A stretch of DNA of 64,000 nt from Fusobacteriota bacterium (GTDB taxonomy: Bacteria > Fusobacteriota > Fusobacteriia > Fusobacteriales > JBNJFI01). How positions within the stretch are numbered: the stretch's first letter is position 1; each line of letters opens with the position of its first letter. The translations under genes and the position numbers were made by a program. Where the stretch lies: NCBI GenBank assembly GCA_051746725.1, contig JBNJFI010000003.1, positions 5,228-69,227 on the forward strand. The letters are read 5' to 3'. Positions 1,928 through 6,119 of the stretch are shown piece by piece. The notes beneath the pieces are model-generated. The model was given only the letters and a program-made list of their open reading frames with translations. It ran no database searches and had not been told where the DNA came from.

Positions 1928-2010
1928 AATATATAAATTATACGTAAAGATTAGATATAAACTTATTATATGGAAAATTAATATAATAAAAGTTATACGA
2001 AACTAAGAAA

Positions 2011-2050
2011 AAAATGGAAGTCAAAAATTATAATTTTTGACTTCCATTTT
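2011..2050. terminator. Bidirectional intrinsic terminator (perfect 40-bp palindrome) between convergent genes
   Basis: AAAATGGAAGTCAAAAATTA|TAATTTTTGACTTCCATTTT is its own reverse complement; lies between stops at 1927 (+) and 2075 (-). Confidence 0.85.
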
Positions 2051-2074: not shown

Positions 2075-2362
2075 TCATGCACTCACCTCGATACTATTTC
2101 CTTGTAAAAGATTAGTAGCGATAACAGTAGATGCAGATTTTGTGTATTGCTGTGTTTTTTCTAACTTTGTAGCAAGATTTTTGACTTGATCTTGTAAATT
2201 AAAATCAAGTTTACTTTTTCTCGCTTTTTTGGAATCACTTTTTTGAACTTCCACCTTACTTTTTATTACATCTGTCTCCTCTAACCTTTTTTGAGTCTGC
2301 GTTACATTAGTTTGATTACTAGCCAAGCTTGGTCTAGTAATACTTGCTTGAACTAACATCAT
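2075..2362 (-). CDS. Small hypothetical protein (~95 aa), candidate sigma28-regulon member with FlgM-like/YjfB-like features
   Basis: Only credible minus-strand gene; SD AAGGAAGGTGA just upstream of ATG at 2362; has its own promoter and a convergent terminator; low-complexity N-terminus; C-terminus VKNLATKLEK..Y..IATNLLQGNSIEVSA. Confidence 0.7.
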   Translation of the reverse strand: MMLVQASITRPSLASNQTNVTQTQKRLEETDVIKSKVEVQKSDSKKARKSKLDFNLQDQVKNLATKLEKTQQYTKSASTVIATNLLQGNSIEVSA

Positions 2363-2409
2363 AATCACCTTCCTTGGATTTTGTTATACAGTCCCTCCTT
2401 GGACTATAT
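2363..2409 (-). promoter_or_regulatory. Two GGA-loop hairpins in the 5' UTR (CsrA/RsmA-type binding sites)
   Basis: Minus strand: ATATAGTCC-AAGGAG-GGACTGTAT (9-bp stem, 2386-2409) and AATCC-AAGGAA-GGTGATT (bulged stem overlapping the SD, 2363-2380). Confidence 0.55.
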
Positions 2410-2424
2410 TCGATCATATAAAGA

Positions 2425-2451
2425 TTATCGTGAGAAAAGGGAAAAACTTTA
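2425..2451 (-). promoter_or_regulatory. sigma28 (FliA/SigD)-type promoter
   Basis: Minus strand TAAAGTTT-N11-CACGATAA versus consensus TAAAGTTT-N11-GCCGATAA (-35 8/8, -10 6/8, exact spacing). Confidence 0.7.
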
Positions 2452-2488: not shown

Positions 2489-2528
2489 TTAGTAGTAGAA
2501 AATTTAAGTGGGAGGTTTTAAAAATAAA

Positions 2529-3491
2529 ATGGAAGTAGAAGTAATTAATGATAAGGTGTCTAAGTATCAAGGAATGATTGATTTAATTAAAAAAGAAATT
2601 TCTAAAGCTGTAATTGGACAGGAATATATGATTGATCGTATTTTGATTGGTGCATTTACAGGAGGTCATTTATTAATTGAAGGAGTTCCTGGATTGGCAA
2701 AATCGTTAACAGTCAATACAATTTCGAAGGTTTTAAATGCAGAGTTTAAAAGAATTCAATTTACTCCAGATTTATTACCAGCTGACATATTAGGTACACA
2801 GATATATCATCAGAAAACAGGAGATTTTGTTACCAAAAAAGGGCCTCTTTTTAGTAATATTATTTTAGCAGATGAGATAAATAGAGCTCCAGCAAAGGTG
2901 CAGTCAGCTTTATTAGAAGCTATGCAGGAAAAGCAGATAACAATAGGTGATATTACTTACAAATTAAATTCACCTTTTTTGGTATTAGCTACCCAAAATC
3001 CACTGGAACAACAAGGGACTTATCCATTGCCAGAAGCTCAGCAAGATAGATTTATGTTAAAACTAAAAGTAGATTATCCATCTAGAAAAGAGGAAGAAGA
3101 TATTATAAACTTATTAACTGAAAATCAAGATGATAATGAAATTGCTAAAGTTTTAGATAAAGAAACAATATTTGAAATAAGAAAGTTAATAAAAAATATT
3201 TATGTAGATGATAAAATCAAAAAATATGTTTTAGATATAATTTTTAAGACTCGAGAAGATTCTCAGTATATAAATTGTGGAGCCTCTCCTAGAGCTTCTA
3301 TAAATTTAATAGTAGCGGCAAAGGGAAGAGCGTTTTTAGAAGGTAGAGGATATGTTACTCCAGATGATATTAAGGATATAGCATATGATGTATTAAGACA
3401 TAGAATATTACTAACTTATGAAGCTGAAGCAGAAGAAATAAATAAAGAAGAAATGATATCAAGAATATTAGAAGATGTTACTTCACCATAA
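2529..3491 (+). CDS. moxR: MoxR family AAA+ ATPase
   Basis: LIEGVPGLAKS Walker A, RIQFTPDLLPAD, LADEINRAPAK, ATQNP; start moved to ATG 2529 downstream of GGAGG. Confidence 0.93.
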   Translation: MEVEVINDKVSKYQGMIDLIKKEISKAVIGQEYMIDRILIGAFTGGHLLIEGVPGLAKSLTVNTISKVLNAEFKRIQFTPDLLPADILGTQIYHQKTGDFVTKKGPLFSNIILADEINRAPAKVQSALLEAMQEKQITIGDITYKLNSPFLVLATQNPLEQQGTYPLPEAQQDRFMLKLKVDYPSRKEEEDIINLLTENQDDNEIAKVLDKETIFEIRKLIKNIYVDDKIKKYVLDIIFKTREDSQYINCGASPRASINLIVAAKGRAFLEGRGYVTPDDIKDIAYDVLRHRILLTYEAEAEEINKEEMISRILEDVTSP

Positions 3492-3528
3492 ATTAATAAA
3501 ATAATTTTTTTTATAAAAGGGGAGTAAA

Positions 3529-4344
3529 ATGATTTCAAAAGATCTAATAAAAAAAATAAAGAAAATAGAAATAAAATCCAATAAAATAGCAAACACACTT
3601 TTTTCAGGGGAATATCATTCATATTTTAAAGGAAATGGAATGGAATTTGAAGATATAAGAGAATATTATCCAGGAGATGATATTAGAAATATCGATTGGA
3701 ATGTTACTGCAAGACAAGGCAAAGCATATGTAAAACAATATAAAGAGGAACGAGAATTAAATATGTTTTTGCTTGTGGATATATCTAGGTCAAACTTTTT
3801 TGGAAACAAGAAAGATATTATAGCCGAAATAGGCGCTACATTGTCATTTTCTGCCATGAAAAATAATGATAAAATTGGAAGTATTCTTTTTACAGATAAG
3901 ATAGATAAAATTATCCCTTCCAAAAAAGGGAAAAAGCATGTATTATCTATTATAGAAAATATTTTAGATTATAAATCAGAAAATAAAAAAACTGATATAC
4001 AAAATGCACTAGAATATTTTAACCGAATACAAAAAAAACGAAGCATTGTATTTTTAATATCTGACTTTTTAGATTCTGGATATGAAGACCAAATAAAGAT
4101 GATATCAAAAAAGCATGATTTAGTCTTAATTAGAATAATTGATAGAATGGAAGAAAAATTACCCAAAGGTGCTATATTTTCATTTGAAGATTTAGAAACA
4201 GGAGAAGAAATTACTATAGAAAATTTAAAAAAGGATAGAACCTTAAATATAAACAAGAATATTCCTTCTAAAAATTTGATAACTATATATACTGATGAAG
4301 ATTATATAAAACCATTAAAGCTCTTTTTTGAAAAGAGAATATAA
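3529..4344 (+). CDS. DUF58 domain protein (vWA-like, MoxR-associated)
   Basis: GxGMEFEDIREYYPGDDIRNIDWNVTAR, LLVDISRS, FLISDF. Confidence 0.92.
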   Translation: MISKDLIKKIKKIEIKSNKIANTLFSGEYHSYFKGNGMEFEDIREYYPGDDIRNIDWNVTARQGKAYVKQYKEERELNMFLLVDISRSNFFGNKKDIIAEIGATLSFSAMKNNDKIGSILFTDKIDKIIPSKKGKKHVLSIIENILDYKSENKKTDIQNALEYFNRIQKKRSIVFLISDFLDSGYEDQIKMISKKHDLVLIRIIDRMEEKLPKGAIFSFEDLETGEEITIENLKKDRTLNINKNIPSKNLITIYTDEDYIKPLKLFFEKRI

Positions 4345-4395
4345 ATCATAACAAATTAAATTAATAAATTTAATAATTTTAAAGAGGGGAAAACA

Positions 4396-5160
4396 ATGAA
4401 AAAAATAATAATAGCTTTATTTGTTTTAATCGGAATCACAATTTTTTCTCAAAAAATATATATTGGGGATTTAGTTAATTTAAGTATCGAAGGAAAAAAC
4501 ATAACTAAAAATCAAATAGAAGAAAAATTTAAGGGGTTTGAAATAGAAAAATTAGTCAAAAAAGATAATGGATATGAATTATCCATTAGAAGCTTTGAAA
4601 CAGGAACCCATAATATTTCAATTGGAAATACAGATCTTGAAATTATAGTTGAATCTGTTATAGAGGAAAAAGATAAATCAGATCCAAACAAAATATTAGA
4701 TGTTACAGAAAAAGGTCAAATAGAAATTGATCTTTTAAAATCACCTTTGCCAATAACCTATTTTTTAATAGGAATTGCCATTTTTATATTTATGATTATA
4801 ATACTAATTATATTAAAATTCTGTAAATCAAGGAAACACAATAGGGAATCTTCTTTCCAAAGATTTATAAATCAAATTAGAAATATTGAATCAGAGGAAT
4901 ATTTTTTTGAATTAACTAAAATATTTAAAGAGTACATATATAACAGATACAAAATAAAAATATCCGGGAAAACATCCAAAGAAATTTTAAAGGAAGTGCC
5001 TGGTCAGATTGACAAGGAAAAATTAAAAGCATGGCTTGATTTTGCAGATTTATGTAAATTCGGTGGATTAGTTCCCACTCCTGAGGAGAAAGAACTATAT
5101 AAAAATATGCTGGTAGAAATTATACAAAAATCAGAAGAGGAAATATTTGAGGTGGAATAA
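4396..5160 (+). CDS. Exported/membrane protein of the Bat locus (DUF4381/BatD-like)
   Basis: Signal peptide, internal TM helix, C-terminal ADLCKFGG..P motif; position between DUF58 and vWA gene. Confidence 0.6.
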   Translation: MKKIIIALFVLIGITIFSQKIYIGDLVNLSIEGKNITKNQIEEKFKGFEIEKLVKKDNGYELSIRSFETGTHNISIGNTDLEIIVESVIEEKDKSDPNKILDVTEKGQIEIDLLKSPLPITYFLIGIAIFIFMIIILIILKFCKSRKHNRESSFQRFINQIRNIESEEYFFELTKIFKEYIYNRYKIKISGKTSKEILKEVPGQIDKEKLKAWLDFADLCKFGGLVPTPEEKELYKNMLVEIIQKSEEEIFEVE

Positions 5161-6119
5161 TGTTTGAATTTGCTAATATATATTTTTTATTGTTAATACC
5201 AATAGCGTTATTTATTTTTTTAAGAAAAAGGAAAACAAATAATATAAAATTTTCAAGGATTTCTTTATTTAAAGATCAAAACATAAAAAAAACCATAAAA
5301 CATAAAATAGGGCCTTATATTATATTATTAGCTGTTATCTTGTTTATAATAGCTTTGGCTCGTCCAAGAATTTCAACTAAAAACCAAATCATAGAAAGAG
5401 ATGGACTTGATATAATAATAAGTATGGATATTTCTAGAAGTATGGAAGCTCAAGATTTTAAACCTAATCGTTTAGAGGCTGCAAAAAAGGTTGGTATAGA
5501 TTTTGTGGAAAAAAGAGAAAGTGATAGGATAGGTTTTGTTGTGTTTAGTGGAACAGCTTATACAAAGATACCGTTGACTTTAGATCATTTAGTATTAAAA
5601 GAAACTATATCTAGAGTTAATTTCAATGATGTTTCTAAAAGAGGGACTGCAATTGGAATGGGGATATCTGTTGCTTTAAATAGATTAAAGGATAGTAAGT
5701 CAAAATCTAAAGTGATAATTTTATTAACAGATGGAGAAAATAATACTGGGGAGATAAACCCCATAACCGCAATGAATTTAGCAAAAGAATTAGATGTAAA
5801 AATATATACTATTGGAGTTGGAGCTGAGACTATAACTCAAAATACTTTCTTCGGGAAACGTGAGGTTAAAAATACTGCCTTAGATGAAGAACTTTTAGAA
5901 AAAATATCTAGAGAAACTAAAGGTAAGTATTTTAGAGCAAAAGATTTAAAAAGTCTAGAAGAAATTTTTAATAATATTGATAAATTAGAAAAAACAAAAA
6001 TAGAGGATAAAAGTTTTTATAATTATAATGAGTTATATTACGTTCTAGTAAAAATTGGACTACTTTTATTAATTATAGGATTATTTTTTGAAAAAATATT
6101 ATTTTTAAAAATTCCATAA
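5160..6119 (+). CDS. batA: vWA domain membrane protein, BatA-like
   Basis: N-terminal LLLIP BatA-type TM segment, ALARP, MIDAS DISRS / GTAIG / LLTDGENN. Confidence 0.85.
   Translation: MFEFANIYFLLLIPIALFIFLRKRKTNNIKFSRISLFKDQNIKKTIKHKIGPYIILLAVILFIIALARPRISTKNQIIERDGLDIIISMDISRSMEAQDFKPNRLEAAKKVGIDFVEKRESDRIGFVVFSGTAYTKIPLTLDHLVLKETISRVNFNDVSKRGTAIGMGISVALNRLKDSKSKSKVIILLTDGENNTGEINPITAMNLAKELDVKIYTIGVGAETITQNTFFGKREVKNTALDEELLEKISRETKGKYFRAKDLKSLEEIFNNIDKLEKTKIEDKSFYNYNELYYVLVKIGLLLLIIGLFFEKILFLKIP

Follow-up and report, generated by a model that had tools for sequence, protein, structure and literature searches.

The closest described systems are the CsrA-controlled flagellar genes of Bacillus subtilis and Campylobacter jejuni. 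The flagellin gene hag of B. subtilis carries two CsrA sites, one of them over the Shine-Dalgarno sequence, and FliW relieves the control that they exert (Yakhnin 2007 and Mukherjee 2011, summarised in PMC7652899 and PMC6529632). In C. jejuni, two CANGGANG-like hexaloops lie 21 nt apart in flaA, the sigma-28-dependent gene flaG is a further target of CsrA control, and the titration of CsrA by a leader has a precedent (Dugar et al. 2016, PMC4894983). The CsrA consensus obtained by SELEX is RUACARGGAUGU, with the GGA in a hairpin loop of mostly 6 nt and, in most ligands, stems of 4 bp or less; a single CsrA dimer can bridge two sites that lie 10–63 nt apart (PMC7652899).

The locus compared here with these systems is an orphan gene on the minus strand of the window (the whole stretch of 64,000 nt that was analysed), which belongs to a genome (G000) of 2.18 Mb with 28.4% G+C; matches of the neighbouring genes place it in an order that is probably Fusobacteriales. 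An earlier note had claimed a CsrA/RsmA architecture of the hag type for its leader, and this agrees point by point with the published descriptions in the CAAGGAGG hexaloop, in the CCAAGGAAGG overlapping the Shine-Dalgarno sequence and in the spacing of 25 nt. For this reason, the leader is probably a two-site translational operator for CsrA, relieved by FliW, on a class-3 flagellar gene. Like hag, which has a sigma-D/sigma-28 promoter, the orphan has its upstream site in a hairpin loop and its downstream site over the Shine-Dalgarno sequence, and, as in B. subtilis, fliW-csrA adjoins a flagellin gene and CsrA has a C-terminal extension. It differs from hag in its target, a non-flagellin of 94–95 aa, in the loop of the first site, A(N)GGAG closed by C-G, and in phylum, which is probably Fusobacteriota, and its circuit is a prediction from sequence. 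With C. jejuni flaA it shares two GGA motifs in CANGGANG-type hexaloops and FliW as the antagonist, while flaG is a direct precedent for dual control of a non-flagellin gene by sigma-28 and CsrA, although the orphan protein is unrelated to FlaG (no PF03646 match). The non-flagellin targets of C. jejuni have a lower affinity than flaA, whereas the sites of the orphan match the consensus at least as well as those of the flagellin leaders.

Transcription unit and promoter of the orphan gene

The features of the locus are collected in Table 1. The promoter fits the TAAA-N15-NNCGATAA spacing, with a spacer of 11 nt between TAAAGTTT and caCGATAA, and the same consensus stands 5′ of flgM, fliD and a flgG-like gene in this genome, indicating that it is in use in the organism. 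The genome also carries fliA (274 bits for FliA, where the cut-off is 189.6), which, with the match to TAAA-N15-GCCGATAA, assigns the promoter to the sigma-28 (FliA/SigD) class-3 type. The leader of about 55 nt that had been claimed earlier is consistent with TAAA-N15-caCGATAA at 2451-2425: transcription would start at about 2418, giving a predicted leader of about 55–56 nt, and about 15 nt separate the −10 element from hairpin 1. Sigma-28-like elements of the form TAA(A/G)-N16-18-CGATA lie upstream of all members of the protein family that have enough upstream DNA.

Table 1. Features of the orphan locus, with positions counted from the first letter of the window
Feature	Position	Strand	Details
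Sigma-28 (FliA)-type promoter	2425..2451	minus	−35 TAAAGTTT at 2451-2444; −10 caCGATAA, with CGATAA at 2430-2425
Hairpin 1, putative CsrA site BS1	2386..2409	minus	9-bp stem ATATAGTCC/GGACTGTAT (arms 2409-2401 and 2394-2386, one G-U pair); hexaloop AAGGAG at 2400-2395
Shine-Dalgarno sequence and putative CsrA site BS2	2368..2378	minus	TCCAAGGAAGG; sequence reading
Orphan ORF	2075..2362	minus	95 aa from ATG 2362, or 94 aa from ATG 2359; stop codon 2077-2075; from the ORF list
Bidirectional intrinsic terminator	2008..2050	both	serves the orphan and the convergent DUF1667 gene; stem TGGAAGTCAAAAAT/ATTTTTGACTTCCA at 2015-2046 with T/A runs on either side (sequence reading)

The four flagellin genes of the same genome (C21:16700-20010) present a different picture, since none of them has a clean TAAA-N15-NNCGATAA placed so as to include the leader hairpin. 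Their upstream regions hold only partial TAAAGTT or GCCGGTGATAA-like elements, whereas flgM, fliD and the small orphans have textbook promoter matches.

On the minus strand, TGATT and then two in-frame ATGs (2362 and 2359) follow directly 3′ of TCCAAGGAAGG, and the alignment of homologues favours the second ATG as the start. Of the neighbours of the orphan, a DUF1667/FAD-oxidoreductase pair is convergent with it and a MoxR-DUF58-BatA operon divergent from it; with a terminator of its own, the orphan thus forms a stand-alone, monocistronic unit; given the position of the terminator, its mRNA should be about 370–400 nt long. The divergent operon, of the MoxR (AAA_3)-DUF58-BatA type, adjoins the orphan and occupies positions 2508-6119 of the window. 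A metagenomic homologue (P0012, L124:127-1104) likewise diverges from a MoxR gene, and the other homologues have unrelated neighbours.

Fold, conservation and rarity of the two-site leader

As the earlier note had read it, TCCAAGGA is present twice in the leader, at 2403-2396 and at 2378-2371 of the minus strand. The first copy does sit in a 9-bp stem with an AAGGAG hexaloop; this hairpin appears in both the minimum free energy (MFE) and the centroid folds, has −10.6 kcal/mol on its own, and reads CAAGGAGG across its loop and closing pair. It is joined to TCCAAGGAAGG by ATAACAAAA, and the distance from the GGA of BS1 to that of BS2 is 25 nt. The Shine-Dalgarno sequence in BS2 lies 5 and 8 nt 5′ of the ATGs at 2362 and 2359, so that the overlap claimed for the second copy holds. 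The bulged stem claimed with it is not supported: RNAfold and RNAalifold both predict hairpin 1 and leave the second copy with just a 2-bp CC/GG clamp. This clamp is invariant by RNAalifold, which found no covariation support for a BS2 stem in the homologous leaders. The MFE of the whole leader is ordinary compared with shuffled sequences (z = −0.86; 46 of 200 shuffles fold as well), and for this reason thermodynamics alone would not carry the claim.

The MFE structure of 2359-2418 (minus strand) contains a long-range helix between the beginning of the leader (UAUGAUCG) and UGAUUAUG, a segment that spans the first AUG. This helix is not visible in the homologous leaders.

Sixteen homologous leaders were read, taken from the contigs encoding the matches of a profile search (next section) and from two further genomic homologues. 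A GGA-loop hairpin with a GGA Shine-Dalgarno sequence 22–29 nt downstream was found in 12 of the 16, and in 11 of these the Shine-Dalgarno sequence reads (T)CCA(A/G)GGA(G/A)GG, that of L120 being AAAAGGAG. The CACAAGGATGTG hairpin of L119 abuts a Shine-Dalgarno sequence without GGA, and L095, L121 and L127 have no hairpin; L095 also lacks the GGA in its Shine-Dalgarno sequence, although its genome (G004) has csrA. The three family members without a hairpin, and the absence of the Shine-Dalgarno GGA in L095 and L119, stand against a CsrA operator. The loops of the family read A(A/C)GGA(G/A) or AGGAG, with A(N)GGA constant and G, A or T after the GGA. In L113 the loop is ACGGAA, and the hairpins of L119 and L120 are of the flagellin type ACAAGGATGT, the core of the SELEX consensus RUACARGGAUGU.

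The stems vary in sequence (AGTCC/GGACT, GCTC/GAGC, CTAGCTC/GAGCTAG, ATCC/GGAT, GCCC/GGGC, ATTCA/TGAAT), and the hairpin is kept among the homologous leaders through compensatory changes, a check on which the earlier reading came out well. In an alignment of nine leaders, four of the five alignable pairs of hairpin 1 show such two-sided changes, 86.7% of the cells are paired compared with at most 51% in slid-partner controls, and the covariation score was reached by none of 500 shuffles. RNAalifold independently predicts the helix of hairpin 1. The covariation support from these nine related sequences may be called good but not statistically rigorous.

The motif is also rare. Counted over both strands, the 2.18-Mb genome has only eight copies of the 10-mer CCANGGANGG; the pair in the orphan leader, 25 nt apart, makes up two of them, and the other six are isolated, being located within coding regions or at an internal Shine-Dalgarno sequence. 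A strict genome scan (CANGGA-N12-28-CANGGA-N4-12-start, followed by an open frame) matched only the orphan, three flagellin genes, one terminator-like case and one site at a contig end, where the frame could not be judged; the fourth flagellin gene falls outside the scanned spacing by 1 nt. A gene-aware scan, which covered the 850 genes whose upstream spacer is 55 nt or longer, agreed with this after terminators had been set aside, and a loose hairpin scan returned mostly internal starts and terminators. The two-copy arrangement exceeds chance, and its rarity carries weight.

These results bear on the idea that the leader has another ligand, perhaps a different RNA-binding protein or a small RNA whose seed is anti-GGA (UCC), or that the Shine-Dalgarno sequence was duplicated by chance and has no regulatory role. 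In favour of this idea, the MFE of the whole leader is not significant against shuffles. Chance is nevertheless excluded, both by the rarity of the motif in the genome and by a conservation with covariation that extends over at least four families in the order and over metagenomic relatives. That the design co-occurs with flagellin leaders and with fliW-csrA points to CsrA rather than to a different ligand, leaving the idea as a whole quite improbable.

STAB-SD elements and 5′-hairpin stabilisers exist in Bacillus mRNAs, and the hairpin with AAGGAG(G) might accordingly be a CsrA-independent mRNA stabiliser or a ribosome standby site, which holds the 30S subunit or blocks 5′ exonucleolytic decay. 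CAAGGAGG is a perfect Shine-Dalgarno-like sequence, the predicted 5′ end is no more than about 10 nt away from hairpin 1, and stabilising 5′ structures are frequent on short late-gene mRNAs. We consider this unlikely, however, as the conserved core is A(N)GGA and not GGAGG. The ACGGAA of L113 and the ACAAGGATGT of L119 and L120 are poor Shine-Dalgarno sequences but good CsrA sites; nor are the AGGA(T) loops of the flagellin leaders Shine-Dalgarno sequences, and the GGA is held in a small loop. For a stabiliser, moreover, the constant spacing of 19–29 nt to the real Shine-Dalgarno sequence would be superfluous. Two properties of hairpin 1 still count against an operator for CsrA: its 9-bp stem is very stable and may be suboptimal for this protein, and AAGGAGG, being a perfect Shine-Dalgarno-like sequence, makes the ribosome an alternative ligand.

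The protein family

The orphan protein has no sequence match in Pfam, NCBIfam or PDB. Word-index protein searches returned the query itself only, a search for related loci with the single orphan protein gave no match in the named genomes, and a degenerate DNA pattern for YTKxASxxIAE gave nothing beyond chance matches, among others in Bacteroidales. Weak homologues in two relatives made a profile search possible; run against 1.84 billion representative proteins, it gave 14 matches of 77–105 aa. The family has a conserved C-terminus, KLAxKIxxTQLYTK(D/E)ASKVIAENLLxGxxExVA, and a variable, polar N-terminal half. The 15 family members, compared with Pfam at E up to 10, showed no match to FlgM, FlaG (PF03646) or YjfB-type motility proteins.

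The gene for CsrA is present in only 10 of 187 species representatives of the order, and the family occurs in five of these ten csrA-positive, flagellated genomes, with no credible match in the other 177. An AlphaFold2 model made with the family alignment has disordered residues 1–51 and helices at 52–71 and 75–86 with pLDDT above 90, which together form a confident helix-turn-helix (residues 52–86).

The protein resembles FlgM (PF04316) in its size of about 95 aa, its sigma-28 promoter, its disordered N-terminal half and its helical C-terminus, the last of which looks FlgM-like by eye. A FlgM paralogue was rejected: Pfam returned nothing at E up to 10, hhalign gives a probability of 0.3% against the FlgM proteins of the order, and a canonical flgM-flgN pair is found elsewhere in the genome, upstream of the fliW-csrA-flagellin cluster. 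A replacement for FlaG was also rejected: G000, G114 and G115 have no FlaG, but G002 and G004 have it together with the family. A third candidate, a mimic of flagellin, was set aside at an hhalign value of 0.5% against the four flagellins, and the local resemblance of KLAxKIxxTQLYTK to EIDRIAxxTEFNTK carries no weight. As a tentative suggestion, the orphan protein could be a late flagellar export substrate or an assembly-coupled regulator.

The database representative of the homologue in G004 (P0002) is truncated and fused to ...EIGRASCRERV. This tail looks like a translated sequencing-adapter or contig-end artefact, and not like real protein.

CsrA, FliW and other genes with this leader type

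A search of the genome found both csrA and fliW, adjacent to each other and directly upstream of four tandem flagellin genes, a result in favour of the earlier reading, which the absence of csrA would have contradicted. The csrA gene (PF02599, 91.1 bits) lies at G000:C21:16098-16253, with fliW (PF02623, 141 bits) immediately upstream, and the encoded CsrA carries the motifs MLVLSRK...GIKAP...VHRSEVY as well as its C-terminal extension. The leaders of all four flagellin genes have a hairpin of the type xCA(A/G)GGATGx and, 19–23 nt on, a CA(N)GGAGG Shine-Dalgarno sequence; the hairpins are CGACA-AGGA-TGTCG, TCA-AGGA-TGA, TGGTCA-AGGA-TGGCCA and AAAAGCA-GGGA-TGCTTTT. The flagellin-style leader claimed for the orphan thus has the same two-site design as the flagellin leaders of its own genome. 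The distances between sites, 25 nt in the orphan, 22–29 nt in its family and 19–23 nt in the flagellin leaders, all lie within the 10–63 nt that a CsrA dimer can bridge, and the orphan combines a genome with csrA and FliW, an A(N)GGA in a hairpin loop, a GGA in the Shine-Dalgarno sequence and a bridging distance.

A covariance model (R1) was built from nine leaders of the orphan family, with no flagellin leaders included, and was used to search the ten csrA-positive genomes. It finds flagellin leaders in eight of the ten flagellated genomes of the order, the orphan's own and seven relatives (G000, G002, G007, G041, G042, G114 and G115 are those named). In the orphan's own genome, the next-best matches after the orphan family are the leaders of the flagellin genes fla3 (34.7 bits, E 4e-5) and fla1 (29.5 bits), and the matches checked in the other six named genomes lie ahead of MIINHN... 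flagellin genes.

Weak R1 matches were also seen directly upstream of csrA, in the 3′ end of fliW, in G007 (L183, G007:C1:2370-2440, 25.7 bits) and in G004 (G004:C141:10828-10897, 18.7 bits). As read, the match in L183 rests mainly on its CTCAGGGAGGAG Shine-Dalgarno sequence. Autoregulation of CsrA behind these two matches is possible but unsupported.

The promoter, the presence of csrA, fliW and fliA, the conserved leaders and the R1 matches together support the dual control by sigma-28 and CsrA that the earlier note had suggested for a non-flagellin gene. That note had also offered the alternative of an mRNA acting as a CsrA sponge, so that the transcript, as a sponge or a dual-function mRNA like C. 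jejuni flaA, would mainly titrate CsrA and the ORF would be secondary. Two high-consensus sites at a good bridging distance would suit this, and a leader that titrates CsrA has its precedent in C. jejuni (PMC4894983), but nothing specific was found in its favour. With two sites only, each RNA would take up one dimer, and conservation of the ORF as a protein, its C-terminal motif being invariant, extends over families of the order and into metagenomes. The four flagellin mRNAs, which have the same sites, would titrate CsrA far more abundantly. Rfam gave only sub-threshold hairpin matches in 2000-2600, at the terminator stem, and none on the leader at E up to 10, Csr/Rsm small RNAs included. A transcript that serves mainly as a sponge has very little probability.

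In the preferred reading, that of a translational operator, the place where transcription starts, the binding of CsrA, the repression and its relief by FliW are inferred, as is any function of the protein, and the steps would be as follows. After completion of the hook-basal body, RNA polymerase with FliA would start about 8 nt 5′ of hairpin 1. One CsrA dimer would bridge hairpin 1, at its A(N)GGA hexaloop, and the Shine-Dalgarno GGA 25 nt downstream, and the bridging would block binding of the 30S subunit. Export of flagellin would free FliW, which would bind CsrA and lift the block, and the small protein would then be translated in step with flagellin, only during filament assembly. The flagellin-type two-site leader, taken together with the sigma-28-type promoter, makes it most likely that the orphan protein is produced solely during construction of the filament.

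The control device is already known in kind; what is new is its target, an unannotated family of small proteins, and with it a second such family. Outside C. jejuni, CsrA of the FliW type is usually treated as a single-target regulator of flagellin. Since R1 finds further genes with such leaders, the orphan appears to be one of a small conserved set that shares the leader design of flagellin.

A second stand-alone small gene was seen in the same genome outside the window (contig C8, about 860-1085), with a 45-aa ORF (MGKTNIKKEIEEMIIKYTKC...) and a terminator. Its leader has TAAAGAAA-N11-aaCGATAA, the hairpin TAGATGT-AAAGGATG-ACATCTA and the Shine-Dalgarno sequence TCAAGGAGG, and homologues of 41 aa and 36 aa with the same leader type are present in G002 (L173) and G007 (L174). 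In this 36–45-aa family, the GGA hairpin and GGA Shine-Dalgarno sequence occur in all three genomes (G000, G002, G007), and a clear sigma-28 promoter in two of them (G000, G002). The 45-aa ORF has no Pfam match, and a relationship to the 95-aa family was rejected (hhalign probability 1.2%).

The conserved operators, with their covariation, mark both families of small proteins as probably regulated together with flagellin, in a lineage that rarely has flagella, and they supply a short, concrete and testable list of candidates for new late flagellar factors. They also provide a clean natural set of putative CsrA sites, with the A(N)GGAG hexaloop closed by C-G, for studies of recognition by FliW-type CsrA. 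It is conceivable, at what we judge a rather low probability, that in the few flagellated members of the order the FliW-CsrA checkpoint of flagellin governs a small conserved regulon in which the 77–105-aa and 36–45-aa families are new late flagellar components. Synthesis of both families would then be locked to filament growth by the operator of flagellin, and their members could serve, for instance, as substrates of type-III export or as partner-switch regulators of FliW, FliS or FliA.

A further leader of this type was seen in G115, ahead of a lipoprotein gene (L171:1440-1560; G115:C1:116409-116472) whose signal peptide ends in LASC. It has an ATCC-ACGGAG-GGAT hairpin and a TCAAGGAGGG Shine-Dalgarno sequence behind a sigma-28-like element, and scores 43.6 bits with R1.
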